The notes: generated by a model from the sequence alone, not told the origin. A stretch of 64,000 nt of DNA from Planctomycetota bacterium (GCA_038227875.1 JBBRPR010000014.1:117401-181400), one strand, 5' to 3'; counted from the first letter of the stretch, positions 42,560 to 53,801 are shown. A program made the numbers and translations.

Positions 42560-42688
42560 GACTCTGCTCTCCATAGGAATAAGTGACGTTATCCCCGCCC
42601 GGCGCACGAGGAAGTGTTGCAATTGGGAGTGACACACATTACGTTGGCAGTCACTTTCTTGCGTGCGACCGACCTACAAGGGGGCATA

Positions 42689-44596
42689 ATGACACTTCGC
42701 GTGTGTGGGCTGCTTTCGGTACTCCTCTTCGCAGCGGCGATCGGATCTGCACGCGCAGAAACACTTGAAATGAAGGACGGCTCGAAAGTTGTCGGCACGG
42801 TTGTTGAAGAAACCGATTCGGCGATCACATTAAAGGTCAAGTTCGGCACGATCATCTATCAGAAGAGCGAAATTAAAAATATCGATAAGGAAGGCGTTGT
42901 CCCCGCTCCGCCTGCAAAGGTGGCTGCGAAAAAGGAGCCACCTGCTCCTGCCGCTCCGGCGACGCCGCCGACCCCTGCCGTACCGCCGAAGGAAAAAGTG
43001 GAGTCCAAGCCCAAAACGGAAGTCGCGGCTCCAGCCAAACCAAAACCGGAGGAGGCGCCCCCGGCAGCGCCCAAGCCAAAAGAGTCCGATCCATTTGCTT
43101 CCACGCCGAAGCCGAAGCCGCAGCCGCAGCCGCGATCGAATCCTGACCCTTCGACGGAAGTCTCATCCGCGCCGCGCTCGAGCGGAGAAGGCGAACTGCG
43201 CGATGTCGTTGTGCTGAAGGCCGGCGGCGAGCAGCGTGGATTTCTCGTTTCCGAATCGGACACCGAGGTCGTATTCGACGTGGTCATGAGCGGTAAGAGC
43301 GTGGCGAAGACGATGCTGTCCCGGACCACCTTTCACCGCGGTGAAGTTGATTCCATCAAGAAGCTCACCGATGAACAGCGCGCCGCCGCGCTGAAGGATC
43401 TGAACAACGCCGCGAAAGAGGAAAAGCGGGACAAGGCTGCAGCACAGAACATCGAGATCGAGCCGTACAGCTGGCAGCTCAAGAACGACCCGAGCAAGTC
43501 TGTGCAGGTGAAGCGCGTCCAACTCACCCACTTCTCCATTGAATCCGACATTGAAGACGACGATCTGCTGCGCAAGCTCGCCTACCGGCTCGACAAGGTC
43601 TTCAATGCGTATCAGCAGTATTTCGGCGTGGACCGCAACGATGCCGTAAAAGTGCGCGTGATGATTTTCAAATCGATGGAGGAATTCTACGCCTCCAACG
43701 GCACCGGCATGCTGAATCCCGCGTTTTATAGCCCCCTCGACAGGCAAGTCCTGGCGGGATGCGATGTCAAAAAATACGAAATGCAGATTGCCGAAATCCG
43801 GGAGCGCCACAAAAAGCTCGAAATCGAACTCCACGATTGGAAGATCCGTGTTGAAGAAGCCCGCGCGGACGTGCGTGCCCAGGTCTCCAAAGCTTATGAC
43901 CAGGTCAATGCGGGAGGAAAGGGCGCCACGGCGGCCGGGCAGGCGGCGATGGAGAACATCAAGCAGCAGGAACGCGAATGGATGCTGGACGTGGGTGCGA
44001 AGGAAAAGCACGTCAACGAAATCCAGGACCTGATCTTCCAGTGCAACCGGCACAACGACGTCGTATTTGGCGAAGTGACCCAGCAGATGCTGTCGACCAT
44101 GTACCACGAGGGATTCCACGCGTTTCTGCACAACTTCCTGTTCGAATCGGAAGAAGCCCTGACCGTGCCGCGTTGGCTCAACGAGGGACTGGCGCAGTAT
44201 TTCGAAGCAGCGCGCCTGGAGAATGGGCACTTTATCCTTGGGCAGGACGTGCGCGAAAAGATGGCGATCCTGCGAAAATTCCGCAACGCCGAATCGCTCC
44301 TTCCGCTCGAAAAGCTCGTCTCCGGCGGCGCGGCCGACTACCAGGTTCATGAAATCGCCAATCTGGAACGCTCGACCAAGAACTACCTGCAGGCGTGGCT
44401 GCTGACCAGCGTGCTGGGCGACAAGGGCCGTTTGAAAAAGGAAATTCTGCAGGCCTACGTGACGGCAATGAAGAATAAGCCGGCACTGGAAGCCCTGCCG
44501 GTGCTCACGGGTATTCCCAACGATCAGCTCGAACAGGCGATGGAAGACAAGTTGAAGCCGGGATTCCAGGCCTCGCCGGAGCCGGAAAAGAAGTAG
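42689..44596 (+). CDS. Secreted DUF1570 / zincin-like protein with Pro-rich linker and coiled coil
   Basis: Signal peptide; HEGFH...PRWLNEGLAQYFE; AFYSP. Confidence 0.75.
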   Translation: MTLRVCGLLSVLLFAAAIGSARAETLEMKDGSKVVGTVVEETDSAITLKVKFGTIIYQKSEIKNIDKEGVVPAPPAKVAAKKEPPAPAAPATPPTPAVPPKEKVESKPKTEVAAPAKPKPEEAPPAAPKPKESDPFASTPKPKPQPQPRSNPDPSTEVSSAPRSSGEGELRDVVVLKAGGEQRGFLVSESDTEVVFDVVMSGKSVAKTMLSRTTFHRGEVDSIKKLTDEQRAAALKDLNNAAKEEKRDKAAAQNIEIEPYSWQLKNDPSKSVQVKRVQLTHFSIESDIEDDDLLRKLAYRLDKVFNAYQQYFGVDRNDAVKVRVMIFKSMEEFYASNGTGMLNPAFYSPLDRQVLAGCDVKKYEMQIAEIRERHKKLEIELHDWKIRVEEARADVRAQVSKAYDQVNAGGKGATAAGQAAMENIKQQEREWMLDVGAKEKHVNEIQDLIFQCNRHNDVVFGEVTQQMLSTMYHEGFHAFLHNFLFESEEALTVPRWLNEGLAQYFEAARLENGHFILGQDVREKMAILRKFRNAESLLPLEKLVSGGAADYQVHEIANLERSTKNYLQAWLLTSVLGDKGRLKKEILQAYVTAMKNKPALEALPVLTGIPNDQLEQAMEDKLKPGFQASPEPEKK

Positions 44597-44742
44597 TTCG
44601 GCTCCCGGGTATGCCCATTTTGATCGTCGGAAAGTTTTTATAGTGGTTGCAGCTGCACGCATATTTTTCAAAATTTGCACAGATTCTTAAATCCATTCAC
44701 CCACCTGCCCAGTAATAGCTTCACGGTTCCTGGAGTACGGCA

Positions 44743-45327
44743 TTGAAGACCGATGAAGAACTATTCTTAAGCGGCGGGGATACGGCCATGACCGAACTCG
44801 TGGGGCGTTATGAACGCCCATTATTTCGATTTCTGCTCCACCTGACCAATGATGCGCAACTGGCTGAGGACGTCTTTCAGGAAAGTTTCCTGCGGCTCCA
44901 TCGCTCGCGATCGACCTACCGGTCCGATCAGGCGCTCAAACCGTACCTCTACCGTATTGCGCTGAATGCGCTGCGCGATCAGCGCTCCCGGCAGCGGCCG
45001 TCGGTACCGCTGGAGACGGCGGCGCTGCAATCGCAAACGAATCCGGCTCTGCGCGCCTCCGGGCCCCGGCCGGACGATGCGTACGAGACTTCTGAAACGC
45101 AACGCCACATCCGCGCGGCGCTGGTGGCACTGCCGGAGAGCGAGCGCGAAGTCGTCGTGCTTCGCGTCTTCGAAGATCTGAGTTTTCCTGAGATTGCCCG
45201 CATTGTCGACATTCCCATTCCGACCGCCAAGTCTCGCATGCTGTACGCGCTCCGCCGCATGAAGCCGGCCCTGGAGCGCTACCTGAGCGGCGCGTCGAAC
45301 ATTTCTGCAAAGGATCTTGCGCTATGA
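44743..45327 (+). CDS. ECF RNA polymerase sigma factor
   Basis: LAEDVFQESF, LYRIA.N, LPESEREVV.L, IPIPTAKSRM; TTG start behind GGAG. Confidence 0.9.
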   Translation: MKTDEELFLSGGDTAMTELVGRYERPLFRFLLHLTNDAQLAEDVFQESFLRLHRSRSTYRSDQALKPYLYRIALNALRDQRSRQRPSVPLETAALQSQTNPALRASGPRPDDAYETSETQRHIRAALVALPESEREVVVLRVFEDLSFPEIARIVDIPIPTAKSRMLYALRRMKPALERYLSGASNISAKDLAL

Positions 45328-48300
45328 ACGAAGAAATGATTCCACCTGAACCCACGTCCGAGAATGAGCGTCGCCGCGAGACGATGTTGGCGTATTACCT
45401 TGGCGCGCTGGAACCCGAGCAGGAAGCGCTGATTCGCGGGCGTATCGAGACCAGCCCCGAATGGCAGGCCGCGCGTCTGGAAGCCAAGACGATGCTCAAC
45501 GGCCTCAAGCGCGACGCGCACGCCGGCACCGCGCCGGCGACGCTAGCCGAACGGACGCTGGAATCGTTGCGCAACGACGGCAAGCCACGCGCGGCCGAAA
45601 CTGCGGCGAAAGCCACTGTCTCACGCGCGGCCGTCAAACGGGATCGCGTCGCAGCGCCGGTCGCCTCGCCGCTGTTTACGAAAACGGTCCGCGTTTTCGC
45701 GGCGCTGTTCGTGGTGAGCTTGATCACGCTCGGAATTCTCGCCTGGAGCAACGCGGCGAGTTCCGTGTCGGCGCCGGCAATTTACTGGCGCACGGAGAGC
45801 GAATTGGCGTCTGGTGGGCCGTTTGCGCCGTCGCTGCAGATTCGCGATGCGGCCAGCGGTGTGCCGGCGTCAGCGTCCGTAACGGCGCAGCTTTACGACG
45901 AACGGGACAAAAGCAAAGTAATCCCCATCGGCACGGCATCGACCGATGAGACGGGGACTCTTGCCGCGACGAACTGGCGCGTGCCGGCAGTTCCCGCGGG
46001 AAAGTACATTCTGCAGATCTTGGCGCGATCGGGCCTGGGCACGGAACTCGACCGCGTCGAACACCCGGTCACCATTGCCGCCTCCAATCGCCTGGCGCTC
46101 GCACCGGATCGTACCCAGGCGCGGCCGGGCGAGACGCTTCACGTCCGCGCACTGGCCTTGTCGTCGGCCGGCCAGACGCCGGTCCGCAACACGCCGATTA
46201 CGTTCGACATTCTCGATCCGCGCGGCAACCGCATCAATCGTGTCGAAACGCGCACGTCTAATTTCGGACTCGCCTGGGCGGAATTCCGGCTCGACACCGC
46301 CGCTCCGGAAGGCGCGTACAAACTCACGGCAATCTCGGAAGGGCTCGCGGCCGAGCGCGAAGTGAACGTGAAGCAGTACGCGCTGCCGGCGTACCAGACT
46401 GTGATCGCCCCTGCGAAAGCGTGGTTCAAGAAGAATGAGACGATCAACGGCACGCTCGACGTCCACACATTTGACGGCCAGCGCATCTCCGATGCCACGA
46501 GCGATCTGACGCTAACCACCGCGACAGGCCAGGTCGTGAGCCAGCAGCATTTGAATCCCGCGCAAGACGGCCGCGCTGCGTTTTCGTTGCCGTGGAGCAG
46601 CAGCGATGACAGCGATCGCTTCGCGCTGATCCTGCATTCCAAAGTCACCGATGGCGGCGGCCGCGTCGTTGAATGCAAGAAGCCGATTTCCATCGCAGGC
46701 GGTGAACTGGTGCTCAGTGCGATTCCCGAAGCGCGGGAACTGGTGCCTGGCGTCGCCAACCGCGTTTACCTTCTCGCGCGCAGCCCGGATGGGCGTGGCA
46801 TGACGTCGCACCTGATCGTCCATCGCGGCGCCGAAGTCCAGGAGCTCGATACCGACGCGGCCGGTGTGGCGGCGCTGACAGTGGAAAATCCCGAGCGGCC
46901 GGCGGAGGTGATCGAGATCACCGACCGCGCGACCGGCGTCTCGAGGCGCGTGTCACTGCCCATTCGCGCCGAGAAAGACGGACGCCTGCTGCTGCGCACC
47001 GATCGCGCGATTGCTCAGGGCGGCCAGACGCTGACGGCCACGCTGCTCTGCGGCGGCGCGACGCCCACTTCCAATGGCGTGGCGCTGGTCTCCCTGCGCA
47101 AGGGTGGCAGCACGGTCTTCAGTAAAGGCGTGAAACTCAGCGGGGTATCGACGTCTGTGCAATTCCAAATTCCCGAAGGCAGCGCGGGGTTGTATTCGCT
47201 CGACACCGTGATGACCGTGGGGGCTGATGCGTGGACGGATCGCCGTTCGTTGCTCGTGACCAACAGCAGCAACGTGCGCGTGGTCGCGTCGGCCGATCGC
47301 GCGTCGTACAAGCCGGGTCAGCGCGCGCGCTTGAATTTCAACGTCACCGATGCGTCGGGCAAAGGCTTGGCGAGCGCCGTCTCGGTGCTCGCGGTTGACG
47401 AAGCGCTGCTAACGCTGACCGGCGAGAACCCCGGCCTGGCGCAGGCGCTGCTGAGCGACGAATCCGGCGCGCTGTCGCAGCCGGATTTGCCGCTGGACGT
47501 CCGCGACTTCGGCCCCGCGCAAGGCGATTCGCCGGCAGCGCTCGCGGCGCTGGCGCATGTCGCGCCGAAGTTGCCATCACCGAATTCTGAGCGTAACGAT
47601 TCAGAAGAATTCATCGATCACTCCGCGGCAAAACTGGAGATGGTACGCCACGAGAGAAAGCAAACGAACGACCTGCTGAAACAATGCGCGTGGGCACTCG
47701 GCGGTGTCAGTGCCGTGTTCGTATTCACGCTGCTTCTCATTTGGGAACTGAGCACCAACATATCTTTTCGGCCGCGAAACCTCGCACTCACCGGAAACTT
47801 TATCGGCTGGGTCACGGCAATTACCTTGGTTGCCGCACTGGGAATTCTGCTCGTCGCTCCGTTCCACAGACCCGGCTTGTTTGTCACTTTAATGGCCGCC
47901 AGTCTGGTCGTGTCCCACGCCGTGCTGATCTGGCATGGAATTGCCCTTACCCCCAATGCGTCGGCGCTGAAGGTCATTACCGTCACGGTGCTATCCGACT
48001 GCTACCTGCTGGCCGCGGCCTGCCTCGCGGCACAATCGCGCAACCAGGACGGAGAGGTGCTTCTTTTCATTCTCTTTGGCGCCCTGCCAGTCGTCATCGC
48101 GCAATTGACGCAATCAGTACCGGGGAACCTGGTCCGTATCGGCATAGCGTGTGCCGGACTCTTCTTCTTCGCTGCGTTAATTCTTCCAACGCTGGGCCGG
48201 GCGCGGGAGAAAGCCGCGGCTAACGGCCGCGGATTTGTAGTGGCTGCGAAAGCGGAGGCCTTTGAGGAAGAGACTGCACTGTTATCCAGTCGTCCTCTTC

Positions 48301-50393
48301 TCATATCGTACTCTCACACATCGGCCCCTCATGTACGCTGGAACTTCCCCGAGACGATGATCTTCGCTCCCGAGATTATCACCGACGAAAACGGCAACGC
48401 GTCGTTCGAGCTCGGTGTCGCCGATTCGCTCACCCGCTGGCGCGTGCAGACGGATGCCGTCGCACAGTCCGGCGGCGTCGCGCAGACGCAGTCGCAGCTC
48501 ATCGTCACGCAACCGTTCTCCGTCGATCTGATTCTCCCCGCCAGCGTCACGGCCGGCGACGTCCTGCGCGTGCCGGCGGTCGTCAGCAATCACACCGGGA
48601 CCGCACAGCGTGTCGACCTGGCATTCGATGTCACCGGAGCGGTGAGCACCGATGGACTGACGCGAGAACTGATGGTCGGACCCGATGCCTCCGCGGCGGC
48701 GGAGTTCACGATCCGCTTTACATCATCAGGAACGGCGCGGTTCCGCGTCACGGCCCGGCCGCAGAATGCGCCCGCTGAAGATCAGGACGCCATTGAGCGG
48801 ACGCTGACGGTGATTCCCGACGGCGAAGCGGTCGCGTTCTCGGCCTCGGGCCCGATCGCCGAAAACGGCACCCTCGAGCTTGAAGTGCCCGACAACGCAA
48901 TCCCCGGCACCGTGCGCGCGACTCTCAACCTCCATCGCGGTCCGCTGACGCAGATGATCGAGGGCCTCGACTCGATGCTTCAGGAACCGCACGGCTGCTT
49001 CGAGCAGACGTCGTCGAGCACCTATCCGAACATCATGATCCTGCGCTACCTGAAAGCCCATGAAGTCAACAACCCGCAGGCGCTGGCGCGCGCGAAACAA
49101 TTTATCGAGCAGGGTTATCAGCGATTGCTGACGTTCGAAGTCAACGGCCCCAGCGGCAGCTTCTCGCTGTTCGGGCAGGCGCCGGCGAGCACCTGGCTGA
49201 CGGCCTATGGACTGCAGGAATTCAACGACATGTCGGCGGTCTTCCCGGTCGATCCGGCGCTGCTGGAACGGATGCGCGGATACCTGATCGGAAAGATGCG
49301 CAACGATGGCTCGTTCGATGTCGACGAATACCACGGACATGAGGCGAGCGATCGCGGGCTGGCGGCGACGGCGTATGTCGTCCACGCGCTCGGCGCATTT
49401 GCGCCCGCGGAGAGCATCCGCTACCTCGCCAATCACCGCGACGAAATCCGCGGCGATCCGTATCTCTGCGCGCTCTGCGCCAATGCGCTGTTGCAGTCCG
49501 ATCGCGCGACGGCCAGCCAGCTCGCGTCCAATCTGCCGCGCCTATTTGAGCTCACCCCCGACGGCAAGCAGGCGACGCTGCCCGCGAAATCGACGCTCGC
49601 CTGGGGCTACGGCCGCACCGCGTCGACGGAAGCCTCGGCACTCGGAGCGCTCGCCTTGCTGCAGACCGGACAGGAGATCGACGCGGCTCAGAAACTCCTC
49701 GCCGGATTGCAAGGGCGCGGCGCGTGGTCGTCCACGCACGCCACGGTGCTCGCGTTGAAAGCGCTGGAATGCGCCGCGAGCCGCACGCAGCAGAGTGGTG
49801 CGCTGCGGATCGTCGCAGAACTCAACGGCGACGCGCTGCCGGTCATCGACCTGAAGGCCGAAGAGACCGGGCTTCCCGTCTCGATCCCGCTGACGCTGCC
49901 GAAAGGAAAATCGAAGCTGCGCGTGCAGGTCAGCGGCGGCGCGCTGGTCGCGCGCGTGACCGGCAGCGCGTGGGTGCCGTGGCAACAGCACGCTCCGAAA
50001 TCTTCGCTATCCAGTCCGTTCTCCGCACTCACCACGTACGACGTGATGAACGTCGCGAAAAATCAGAGTGTGCTCGGCACGCTGAACCTGACTGTGAAAG
50101 GCCGCCGCGCCGAAGTGCCGATGATCGAATGGGGCCTGGCCGCCGGTTTCCAGCCCAACAGCACCGATCTCGATGCGCTCAAAACGCGCGGAGTGATCAC
50201 GCGCTGGGAACTCTCGGGGCGCAGCCTCCACCTTTATCTGCCGGATCTGAACGAGGGCAGCAAGACGCTGCTGTCGGTGCGCTTCACGCCGACCGCCGGC
50301 GGCACGCTGACCGCGCAGCCGGGCCGCGTGTACGAGTACTACAGCCCCGCGGACGCGGCTTCGATTCAGCCGGTGAAGTTCGACGTGAAATAA
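45324..50393 (+). CDS. Anti-sigma-like N-terminus fused to membrane-embedded alpha-2-macroglobulin (thioester protein)
   Basis: LAYYLGALEPE anti-sigma-like helix; TM; DR...RPGET, AVDEALL, VRWNFPET, GCFEQ thioester, GYQRLL, STWLTAY, VYEYY. Confidence 0.85.
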   Translation: MNEEMIPPEPTSENERRRETMLAYYLGALEPEQEALIRGRIETSPEWQAARLEAKTMLNGLKRDAHAGTAPATLAERTLESLRNDGKPRAAETAAKATVSRAAVKRDRVAAPVASPLFTKTVRVFAALFVVSLITLGILAWSNAASSVSAPAIYWRTESELASGGPFAPSLQIRDAASGVPASASVTAQLYDERDKSKVIPIGTASTDETGTLAATNWRVPAVPAGKYILQILARSGLGTELDRVEHPVTIAASNRLALAPDRTQARPGETLHVRALALSSAGQTPVRNTPITFDILDPRGNRINRVETRTSNFGLAWAEFRLDTAAPEGAYKLTAISEGLAAEREVNVKQYALPAYQTVIAPAKAWFKKNETINGTLDVHTFDGQRISDATSDLTLTTATGQVVSQQHLNPAQDGRAAFSLPWSSSDDSDRFALILHSKVTDGGGRVVECKKPISIAGGELVLSAIPEARELVPGVANRVYLLARSPDGRGMTSHLIVHRGAEVQELDTDAAGVAALTVENPERPAEVIEITDRATGVSRRVSLPIRAEKDGRLLLRTDRAIAQGGQTLTATLLCGGATPTSNGVALVSLRKGGSTVFSKGVKLSGVSTSVQFQIPEGSAGLYSLDTVMTVGADAWTDRRSLLVTNSSNVRVVASADRASYKPGQRARLNFNVTDASGKGLASAVSVLAVDEALLTLTGENPGLAQALLSDESGALSQPDLPLDVRDFGPAQGDSPAALAALAHVAPKLPSPNSERNDSEEFIDHSAAKLEMVRHERKQTNDLLKQCAWALGGVSAVFVFTLLLIWELSTNISFRPRNLALTGNFIGWVTAITLVAALGILLVAPFHRPGLFVTLMAASLVVSHAVLIWHGIALTPNASALKVITVTVLSDCYLLAAACLAAQSRNQDGEVLLFILFGALPVVIAQLTQSVPGNLVRIGIACAGLFFFAALILPTLGRAREKAAANGRGFVVAAKAEAFEEETALLSSRPLLISYSHTSAPHVRWNFPETMIFAPEIITDENGNASFELGVADSLTRWRVQTDAVAQSGGVAQTQSQLIVTQPFSVDLILPASVTAGDVLRVPAVVSNHTGTAQRVDLAFDVTGAVSTDGLTRELMVGPDASAAAEFTIRFTSSGTARFRVTARPQNAPAEDQDAIERTLTVIPDGEAVAFSASGPIAENGTLELEVPDNAIPGTVRATLNLHRGPLTQMIEGLDSMLQEPHGCFEQTSSSTYPNIMILRYLKAHEVNNPQALARAKQFIEQGYQRLLTFEVNGPSGSFSLFGQAPASTWLTAYGLQEFNDMSAVFPVDPALLERMRGYLIGKMRNDGSFDVDEYHGHEASDRGLAATAYVVHALGAFAPAESIRYLANHRDEIRGDPYLCALCANALLQSDRATASQLASNLPRLFELTPDGKQATLPAKSTLAWGYGRTASTEASALGALALLQTGQEIDAAQKLLAGLQGRGAWSSTHATVLALKALECAASRTQQSGALRIVAELNGDALPVIDLKAEETGLPVSIPLTLPKGKSKLRVQVSGGALVARVTGSAWVPWQQHAPKSSLSSPFSALTTYDVMNVAKNQSVLGTLNLTVKGRRAEVPMIEWGLAAGFQPNSTDLDALKTRGVITRWELSGRSLHLYLPDLNEGSKTLLSVRFTPTAGGTLTAQPGRVYEYYSPADAASIQPVKFDVK

Positions 50394-52574: not shown

Positions 52575-53801
52575 ATGGACCCAGTTCCACCCGAACCGCC
52601 GCCATCGGAGCGACCGCCTGAGCCGCCCATCGGACCTGCTCCATCTGAGGTGTCTCCGCCCCCTTCCACCGGGGTCAATCCTGCTCAGGGTGACAGTGCA
52701 GTTCCTGCATCGGTTCCTGACGTCCCGATTGAAGTTCGCCCTCCGCTCGCGCCGCCTCCCACGCTGAGTTCCCAGTACGAACAGTGGCTGTTGAGCAACC
52801 TTGCGCCTCTTGGGGTAATCGTGGTGGCGCTGGCGATGATGCTGGCACTCGGACCGTTGCTTGTGAAGCCCACGACTATTCGGCCGGTGGTTCCGGATTC
52901 GCCCGTGACGCCGCTTTTTCCAGGCATGGAAAAACCGATGCGCGTGACGTGGCCGAACCTCGGTGTGATCTGCCTGGTCGGGCTGGTGCTGATGTATATT
53001 TTTACGCCCGACGCACGGCGCTGGTTCAAGCAGTACACGCCGCGGCCGCTGCCGGCGTTGAAGATCCTGGATCTGCTGGCGCTATTGGCTTCGTCGCGGG
53101 CGGTGGCGTTGCTGCTGGTAGTGATCGCGCAACGCGCCAAAATTCCACTACTGGCGGCGGGAAGTGAGAAAGCGATTCTCGCCGCGGAGATGATCCTCGG
53201 CGATGCCATTTTTCTGGCCGTGGTCTTTCTGGCGATCTGGCTGGCGCGACAGCGCGTGGGCGGGCCGCATGGTTCGATGGGCGTGTGGCCGTTCTGGAAA
53301 CTGGTGAACACGGAACGTTCGGTGCTCAACGACATCGTGCTGGGCGCGGCCTGTTATCCCGTGTTCTTTTTACTTGGGAATCTTTTCTTCGTGCCGCTGG
53401 GCCACGAACTGGCGGAGTACTTCGGCTACAACCCCAAACCGCACCCGCTCTTGTTGGCGCTGCGGGAACAACTGCAGCCGTGGGAGTTGGTTGTGTTTGT
53501 GCTGTCCGCCACGATTGGTGCGGCGTTCTTCGAAGAACTCATTTTCCGCGGTGTGCTCTACAACGGCCTGCGCCGCTACGTCGGCCCGTGGCTTGGCGGG
53601 GCCGCCGCGGCGCTGGTGTTCGCGACGCTGCATCCGGTGGGCGACTGGCTGGGCATTTTCTTTCTGGGCATGATGCTGACGTGGCTCTACGACAAGACCG
53701 GGCGGCTGGTCTCGAGCATGACGCTGCACTTCATCAACAATTCGGTGGCGGTGATTGCGACGTTGAGCTTGGAATATTTGCAGCGCTATCTGAAGAAATG
53801 A
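52575..53801 (+). CDS. CPBP (Abi/CAAX) intramembrane glutamic endopeptidase
   Basis: FFEELIFRG, FATLH, HFINN motifs; Pro-rich N-terminus. Confidence 0.9.
   Translation: MDPVPPEPPPSERPPEPPIGPAPSEVSPPPSTGVNPAQGDSAVPASVPDVPIEVRPPLAPPPTLSSQYEQWLLSNLAPLGVIVVALAMMLALGPLLVKPTTIRPVVPDSPVTPLFPGMEKPMRVTWPNLGVICLVGLVLMYIFTPDARRWFKQYTPRPLPALKILDLLALLASSRAVALLLVVIAQRAKIPLLAAGSEKAILAAEMILGDAIFLAVVFLAIWLARQRVGGPHGSMGVWPFWKLVNTERSVLNDIVLGAACYPVFFLLGNLFFVPLGHELAEYFGYNPKPHPLLLALREQLQPWELVVFVLSATIGAAFFEELIFRGVLYNGLRRYVGPWLGGAAAALVFATLHPVGDWLGIFFLGMMLTWLYDKTGRLVSSMTLHFINNSVAVIATLSLEYLQRYLKK

Follow-up and report, generated by a model that had tools for sequence, protein, structure and literature searches.

Why should the gene of a sigma factor be translationally coupled to that of a macroglobulin? 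The question was raised by a stretch of 64,000 nucleotides (nt) from a Planctomycetota bacterium (GCA_038227875.1 JBBRPR010000014.1:117401-181400), here called the window, in which positions 44743-50393 are made up of two open reading frames (ORFs) on the same strand (+). The first encodes an extracytoplasmic function (ECF) sigma factor and the second, P0002, a putative anti-sigma domain fused to a thioester macroglobulin of the type of alpha-2-macroglobulin (A2M) and complement C3. The reading favoured here, at a probability of about 0.55, is that of a two-gene, probably self-regulated module, in which a membrane anti-sigma factor carries the C3/A2M-type thioester ectodomain and in which attack on this ectodomain, or its firing, would free the sigma factor. 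The anti-sigma coupling itself was strongly supported in silico.

The first gene (44743-45327, +) encodes a group 4 sigma-70 factor of 194 amino acids (aa); it starts with TTG and displays a GGAG 7 nt upstream. Its product matched Pfam Sigma70_r2 (55.5 bits, residues 19-85) and Sigma70_r4_2 (45.2 bits, residues 123-173), was devoid of r1 and r3, and reached 89.5 bits with the NCBIfam model sigma70-ECF TIGR02937 (cut-off 42.9). No NCBIfam equivalog was reached, the best being PRK12513 (139.8 bits, cut-off 206). ECF homologues were alike from the TDEELF motif onward. The TGA stop of this gene overlaps the ATG of P0002 (45324-50393, +, 1689 aa) within an ATGA at 45324-45327. Both the ECF assignment and the overlap had been proposed in a preliminary description of this DNA and were upheld.

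The first 116 residues of P0002 were polar and helical, leaving no place for a signal peptide or lipobox, and were followed by a transmembrane (TM) helix at residues ~121-143 (TM1; 45684-45752, +; identified by hydropathy, helix 118-146 in the model), a membrane anchor that follows the anti-sigma domain. An AlphaFold2 (AF2) model of residues 1-1012 placed N-terminal helices at 13-26, 31-43, 45-64 and 72-85, with predicted local distance difference test (pLDDT) values of 90-95 for helices 1-3 (residues 11-60) and of ~58-66 for helix 4. The three-helix bundle, linker and fourth helix of a class I anti-sigma domain (ASDI) were all present in this model, in line with the short helical domain and TM helix described initially. 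A zinc-less class I-like anti-sigma domain was accordingly placed at 45360-45578 (+) from the modelled helices, a profile alignment and the predicted sigma interface. In this alignment (hhalign), the N-terminus of the window's family matched the zf-HC2-type N-termini of other ECF-linked macroglobulins at 89 % (E 2.3e-6, 74 columns). Pfam zf-HC2 was found in distant macroglobulins (53 bits in L008, 25.5 in L007 and 24.0 in L019, cut-off 22.2; several others fell below), and the Hx3Cx2C zinc motif was missing in the window's family, which carries R/S/W at the aligned H/C/C positions. About 44 % of ASDIs are without this motif according to PMC7406223. A match to the NCBIfam model 'putative anti-sigmaE' (residues 18-112, E 9e-5) was weak and far below the family cut-off, the ESM Atlas gave sub-threshold leads for the N-terminus (scores <=0.87, some with zf-HC2), and no shorter protein with a window-type N-terminal domain was found by word-index search at E <=0.001. 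The N-terminus ranked among the best-conserved parts of the close family.

A complex of the ECF factor with residues 1-115 of P0002 was predicted along with three controls. The median interface score (interaction prediction score from aligned errors, ipSAE) was 0.74, against 0.05 for the best of the three controls, a pass that may reflect likeness to solved pairs. Of 157 solved complexes, 116 attain this ipSAE mark, as do two of 215 mismatched pairs, counts that hold only roughly because own alignments were used for the prediction. The runs shared at least 81 % of contacts, and pLDDT of the partner was at least 75. In the predicted interface, contacts to sigma-4 (residues 117-181) come from helices 1 and 3, and those to sigma-2 (residues 13-54) from helix 4; this dual contact is described as a class I theme in PMC7406223. 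As far as modelling can tell, the proposal of the preliminary description that the N-terminus is the anti-sigma partner of the neighbouring ECF factor is well supported, to which the zf-HC2 profile homology and a strict ECF linkage contribute.

This linkage was followed in close and distant relatives. A word-index search with P0002 gave 53 matches, and twelve Planctomycetota proteins of 40-53 % identity to P0002 (alignment A1) displayed the same full layout, namely an N-terminal motif (consensus RRExMLAFHLGAL..ALIRGRLESDPDW), TM1, a multi-TM insert and an invariant CFEQ. P0018 displayed the N-terminal motif but was 1021 aa long and had no CxEQ. The window-type N-terminus was encountered in seven of 401 sampled genomes of the phylum, including the window's own, and a metagenome scan with its profile found only four loci. 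An ECF gene was located directly upstream, on the same strand, in all 11 close-family loci with upstream sequence (L082-L088 and L090-L093; L089, which starts inside the gene, was left out). Weak matches to the window-type N-terminus were also seen in frames of 904 aa (L088, G091:C162:11406-11852) and 723 aa (L086, G294:C41:117481-117774), each directly downstream of an ECF gene; these may represent the same anti-sigma type on other ectodomains.

Distant relatives were taken from 80 genome loci, a sample biased toward the thioester motifs of the query, and 61 of them displayed a complete macroglobulin ORF. An N-terminal cytoplasmic extension, defined by a first TM helix at residue >=83 of the longest ORF, was found in 16 of the 61. 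All 16 had an ECF neighbour, upstream and co-directional in 15 and divergent in one (Singulisphaera sp. Ch08, L019); in L049 and L060, the ECF gene overlaps an over-extended ORF call. Among the 45 complete ORFs without extension, none had an adjacent ECF gene. Synteny (11/11 close and 16/16 extended distant loci) thus agreed with the ECF linkage supposed initially, as a pattern and not as a statistical test since relatives are not independent. One of the 45, L006 (3226-10698), displayed an ECF gene two genes upstream, followed by a separate 515-aa anti-sigma-like tetratricopeptide repeat (TPR) protein (4-nt overlap; weak zf-HC2 match, E 0.15) and by a macroglobulin that has a signal peptide but no TM insert; this locus may be the unfused counterpart of the fusion cassette. 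In a midpoint-rooted FastTree of C-terminal halves, anti-sigma-bearing macroglobulins fell in at least four separate places. This tree comprised 64 rows, i.e. 58 of the 61 complete ORFs (L022, L041 and L052, cut at the C-terminus, were left out), the window, L090 and L094-L097.

The remainder of P0002 is mainly a macroglobulin. Pfam matches above cut-off were MG2 (residues 261-340), A2M_BRD (557-698), A2M (PF00207, 1011-1099), TED_complement (1210-1481) and A2M_recep (1600-1679). The first two belong to the ring of macroglobulin (MG) domains MG1-MG6 (residues ~150-700; 45771-47423, +), while the others correspond to the A2M or MG7 domain (48354-48620, +, 63.6 bits), the thioester domain (TED; 48951-49766, +, 104.6 bits) and the C-terminal receptor-binding-type or MG8 domain (50121-50360, +, 27.7 bits). 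The TED carries GCFEQ at residues 1224-1228 (48993-49007), by its sequence an intact CxEQ motif, and CFEQ was invariant in 13/13 family members; the C-terminal end reads ...GRVYEYYSPADAAS...K and includes a VYEYY motif. MG domains, A2M domain, intact thioester motif and VYEYY had all been named in the preliminary description, and all were recovered. The MG1-6 half was modelled by AF2 as all-beta at high pLDDT, and ~620 columns of it were aligned by Foldseek with the beta chain of complement C3 (target TM-score 0.67-0.69, E 1e-27). The nearest solved structures by sequence were eukaryotic (CD109, A2M, A2ML1, TEP1 and C3/C4; E 1e-35 to 1e-19), A2M from E. coli or Salmonella was not among the 46 PDB matches at E <=1e-5, and no bMG-type Pfam domain (PF11974, PF17973 and others) was found in P0002 at E <=0.1. 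P0002 is therefore not of the ECAM type. As already noted in the preliminary description, neither pbpC nor a lipobox could be seen: the scanned flanking ORFs included no pbpC-like or penicillin-binding protein gene, the genome (88 % complete) gave no match to BiPBP_C, and the first hydrophobic stretch was that at residues 121-143. The same genome has four A2M-family genes in all, the other three being located at G000:C73:30727-30999, C28:89811-90071 and C2:258125-258388, in frames of 2095, 1916 and 2507 aa.

Hydropathy uncovered six further helices at residues ~788-958 (47685-48197, +), between A2M_BRD and the A2M domain. They had been overlooked in the preliminary description, whose TM helix corresponds to TM1, and they alter the view of how a signal could pass through the membrane. 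The insert sits between A2M_BRD and the conserved PRLRWDFPET motif at the start of the A2M/MG7 domain, which is the position of the bait region. At the corresponding place, C3 has a helical domain (ANA). Both AF2 models displayed helices at 767-812, 820-844, 850-875, 879-904, 909-929 and 934-980, with low confidence: pLDDT was 55 and the predicted template modelling (pTM) score 0.31 for the insert alone (6-row alignment), and pLDDT was ~55-67 in the 1-1012 model. Lys+Arg values of the loops fitted an out-in-out topology, inner loops a-b, c-d and e-f displaying 1.5, 1.0 and 0.8 versus 0.5 for b-c and 0.4 for d-e. An even number of passes is required for MG1-6 and MG7-TED-MG8 to lie on the same side of the membrane. 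The linker from the last TM helix to the PRLRWDFPET motif (~45 aa; 48198-48332, +) varied strongly in length and sequence among the 13 family members and was modelled at pLDDT <50. Judging from this variability and from the models, the hypervariable and apparently disordered linker is the best candidate for the real bait.

The insert was kept throughout the close family (13 members). Its residues T831, H865 and D892 were invariant in these 13 members but lost in L095, and a catalytic role of the insert was rejected. A phmmer search against 1.84 billion representatives matched only P0002 and P0003, while, of all the loci fetched, only L090 and L092 were matched by a hidden Markov model (HMM) of the family insert; the insert thus seemed to be without known family or stand-alone relatives. 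That of P0002 had no Pfam match, and inserts of different lineages could not be aligned. By crude hydropathy, at least one TM segment occupied the bait position in 39 of the 61 complete ORFs and none in 22. There were six such segments in 17 ORFs, two in 15 and four in one; odd counts (1, 3, 5, 5, 7 and 9) were probably miscounts. All 16 anti-sigma-bearing ORFs carried them (two in 14, four in one, six in one). Six-helix forms devoid of the anti-sigma domain were found in metagenome-assembled genomes of Chloroflexota, Acidobacteriota, Vulcanimicrobiota, Verrucomicrobiota and Myxococcota. Six-helix macroglobulins with a plain N-terminal anchor and no ECF gene (L003, L005, L013, L015, L018, L030, L031, L039, L057, L059, L064, L069, L075, L078, L079 and L080) look, from their sequences, like a large undescribed membrane-bait class of their own.

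The probable output of the sigma factor was approached from the DNA upstream. An ECF-type promoter-like motif, AAATCC-N17-GTAATA (44689-44717, +; -35 at 44689-44694, -10 at 44712-44717), precedes the ECF start by 26 nt and recurred at the same relative position upstream of ECF genes in close-family loci. The pattern AAATCYN{16,18}GTAWTA was exact in the window, in L094 (near-identical to L093) and in L090; L092 and L083 deviate from it at one position and L091 at two, and the match in L084 was weaker. Genome-wide, three exact matches were found versus two for the reversed control, and the two matches other than that of the operon had no convincing downstream gene. A scan for sigma-70 promoters and terminators gave nothing above shuffled sequences. 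In the simplest interpretation, the main target of the sigma factor is its own operon. Since the two-gene unit is what is conserved and the motif is essentially unique to the operon, the output seems to be the macroglobulin itself, and the system is likely no less a trap that replenishes itself than a general signalling device.

Taken in order along the chain, the favoured reading would have a cytoplasmic four-helix zinc-less anti-sigma domain lead through TM1 to periplasmic MG1-6, followed by a six-helix membrane bundle and hypervariable linker in place of the bait and by periplasmic MG7-CUB-TED(GCFEQ)-MG8. At rest, the anti-sigma domain would clamp the sigma factor between sigma-2 and sigma-4, as the complex prediction supports. 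A protease would then cut the exposed linker, or the protein would otherwise be fired or degraded, and the macroglobulin would change shape. Once the large ectodomain and the bait-region helices ceased to shield it, TM1 would be cleared by intramembrane proteolysis, probably by the RseP-type M50 site-2 protease (S2P) that the genome encodes. Helix-breaking residues favour S2P cleavage; a Pro in TM1 was kept in 12/13 family members, and the window carries Thr-Leu-Gly there. The freed sigma factor would transcribe its own operon from AAATCC-N17-GTAATA, such that a spent trap would order its own replacement and protease attack would be reported to the cytoplasm. Protease attack or the thioester switch, the release signals put forward in the preliminary description, may be the signal in this scheme.

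Several points weigh against this reading. The packing of TM1 on the six-helix bundle is purely conjectural since pLDDT of the insert was low, and the K/R-rich flanks of the insert were ambiguous rather than clearly positive-inside. Size-gated access of S2P is left unexplained because cleavage of the bait alone would leave MG1-6 on TM1. A TM insert without anti-sigma domain was found in 22/45 complete relatives, and because so many relatives carry it in this form, the primary role of the insert is apparently not sigma signalling. The complex prediction speaks for likeness and not for binding, because ECF/anti-sigma complexes have already been solved, and its pass may stem from the memory of the model for such pairs. 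Of the domain families expected at the outset, those of the macroglobulin (MG2, A2M_BRD, A2M and TED) were above cut-off, whereas the anti-sigma families, zf-HC2 included, were not for the window's own N-terminus, and a profile of this N-terminus matched no solved anti-sigma factor among PDB sequences. The promoter motif was missing in L095 and L096, and other regulon members could have been missed because the genome is 88 % complete.

A related and more doubtful proposal is that of a complement-like bacterial sentinel with signalling through the membrane: the bait region would have turned into a TM bundle packing on TM1, a cut in the linker or firing of the thioester would rearrange this bundle and free the ECF factor directly, and this arrangement would have arisen on four or more occasions from different anti-sigma domains.

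It is rather unlikely, but deserves attention, that the fusion acts as a dosage or assembly checkpoint without any sensing of proteases. The anti-sigma domain would then provide 1:1 negative feedback, the sigma factor would be released by turnover or by generic proteolysis under envelope stress, and the macroglobulin would be a defensive effector only. An output that seems to be the macroglobulin itself, from only two conserved genes and an essentially unique motif, speaks for this explanation, as do the TM-insert macroglobulins without anti-sigma domain (22 of 45 complete relatives). Simple feedback, however, needs no 1500-aa ectodomain on the anti-sigma factor. Moreover, anti-sigma domains of two types, zinc-less and zf-HC2, occupied at least four places of the midpoint-rooted tree, and this suggests selection for coupling the state of the ectodomain to transcription.

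Somewhat less probable still is a complement-like sensor of contact or covalent tagging, for which the signal would be the reaction of the thioester with surfaces of competitors, prey or polymers, or with their nucleophiles, rather than cleavage of a bait. The closest solved relatives, among them CD109, A2M, A2ML1, TEP1 and C3/C4 (best E 1e-35), are eukaryotic, and the A2Ms of E. coli and Salmonella are absent from the 46 matches; the N-terminal half resembles the C3 beta chain, and membrane helices replace the classical soluble bait loop. The hypervariable disordered linker, however, lies after the last TM helix, exactly at the place of the bait, and all characterised bacterial A2Ms are, to our knowledge, protease inhibitors. 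That the N-terminus is a mere cytoplasmic tail and that the ECF factor just transcribes the neighbouring macroglobulin gene, with no protein-protein control, would suit the missing Pfam anti-sigma match, the missing solved homologue by sequence and the weak Atlas leads (<=0.87), but is very improbable in view of the hhalign match, the modelled helices, the complex prediction, the high conservation of the N-terminus and the strict co-occurrence of extension and adjacent ECF gene (16/16 versus 0/45).

The favoured anti-sigma/macroglobulin module resembles several known systems in part. The zinc-less class I pairs RskA-SigK (M. tuberculosis) and RseA-RpoE (E. coli), as covered in PMC7406223, share with it a four-helix domain and, after it, a single TM helix. 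In P0002, too, prediction puts helices 1-3 against sigma-4 and helix 4 against sigma-2, Hx3Cx2C is lacking, and the gene is translationally coupled to that of the ECF factor. Unlike RskA and RseA, P0002 displays a 1500-aa thioester macroglobulin outside and seven membrane passes, and it remained below every cut-off of the RskA/RseA family models in Pfam and NCBIfam. In the RsiV-SigV pair of Bacillus subtilis, the anti-sigma factor itself is reportedly the receptor for attacking lysozyme. The concept is alike, with an ectodomain that engages a hostile enzyme and a sigma factor freed by regulated intramembrane proteolysis; the ectodomain of P0002 is unrelated, however, and its engagement would be covalent or trap-like.

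Type I bacterial A2Ms (ECAM/YfhM of E. coli, SaA2M of Salmonella) are, like P0002, thioester-bearing periplasmic macroglobulins tethered to the inner membrane. They are lipoproteins with bMG-type domains, usually encoded beside pbpC, while P0002 has no lipobox, pbpC or bMG Pfam match and its bait position is predicted to be membrane-embedded. CD109, A2M, A2ML1, insect TEP1 and C3 share the whole domain set (MG2, A2M_BRD, A2M, TED_complement and A2M_recep) but are secreted or anchored by glycosylphosphatidylinositol (GPI), without anti-sigma domain or TM helices. A further bacterial macroglobulin, MagD, has separate Mag proteins as partners. The MagD complex of Pseudomonas aeruginosa is similar in that a bacterial macroglobulin works with the inner membrane; in the abstracts of PMC5764988 and PMC3735191, it belongs to a bacterial type set apart from the thioester-bearing Type I, and no link to sigma or anti-sigma factors is described.

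No relevant report that connects an anti-sigma or ECF factor to a macroglobulin or thioester protein was found in the searched literature, where four co-occurrences of these terms were incidental, and titles and abstracts on bacterial A2Ms did not describe TM helices in the bait. The ECF reclassification PMC7826278 contained no mention of macroglobulin, A2M or their Pfam accessions in its main text and part of its supplement, the remainder of which could list an ECF group that neighbours a macroglobulin, and the ASDI paper PMC7406223 did not name them. The architecture, which the preliminary description had allowed might already figure in ECF classifications, was not found described in what was searched of them. 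Both the predicted pairing of anti-sigma domain with thioester macroglobulin and the membrane-embedded bait position thus appear undescribed in the searched literature.

As to the surroundings of the cassette, no flanking gene was kept around it in relatives, the conserved unit consisting of the ECF and fusion genes only. Its upstream neighbour in the window (42614-44596, +) encodes a 660-aa protein with DUF1570 (31.7 bits) and is not kept beside the cassette elsewhere. The gene of a 408-aa Rce1-like (CPBP) intramembrane protease (52575-53801, +; 70.3 bits) lies 2.2 kb downstream; it is probably unrelated to the cassette since it is not kept beside it in relatives. tRNA genes were found just upstream of the cassette in three of the seven close-family loci scanned (L092:3193-3265, Lys-CTT; L090:4887-4959, Met-CAT; L091:351-426, Arg-TCT) and none near the cassette in the window. 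This adjacency may be a hint of island-like mobility of the cassette.

Much of bacterial signalling runs through ECF/anti-sigma pairs, and for most anti-sigma ectodomains we know of no established stimulus. A thioester protease trap in the place of such an ectodomain offers concrete candidates, namely proteases and nucleophiles. With its own promoter, the two-gene module might also find use as an orthogonal switch that responds to proteases. The helices at the bait position, which we know from no characterised macroglobulin, were encountered in relatives from Planctomycetota, Chloroflexota, Acidobacteriota, Armatimonadota and other phyla, and they bear on how traps are triggered at the membrane. 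If the more doubtful bundle on TM1 proved true, an innate-immunity fold would here have been made into a receptor that senses proteases or attack. The module would be the first link of the A2M/C3 fold to bacterial transcriptional signalling.

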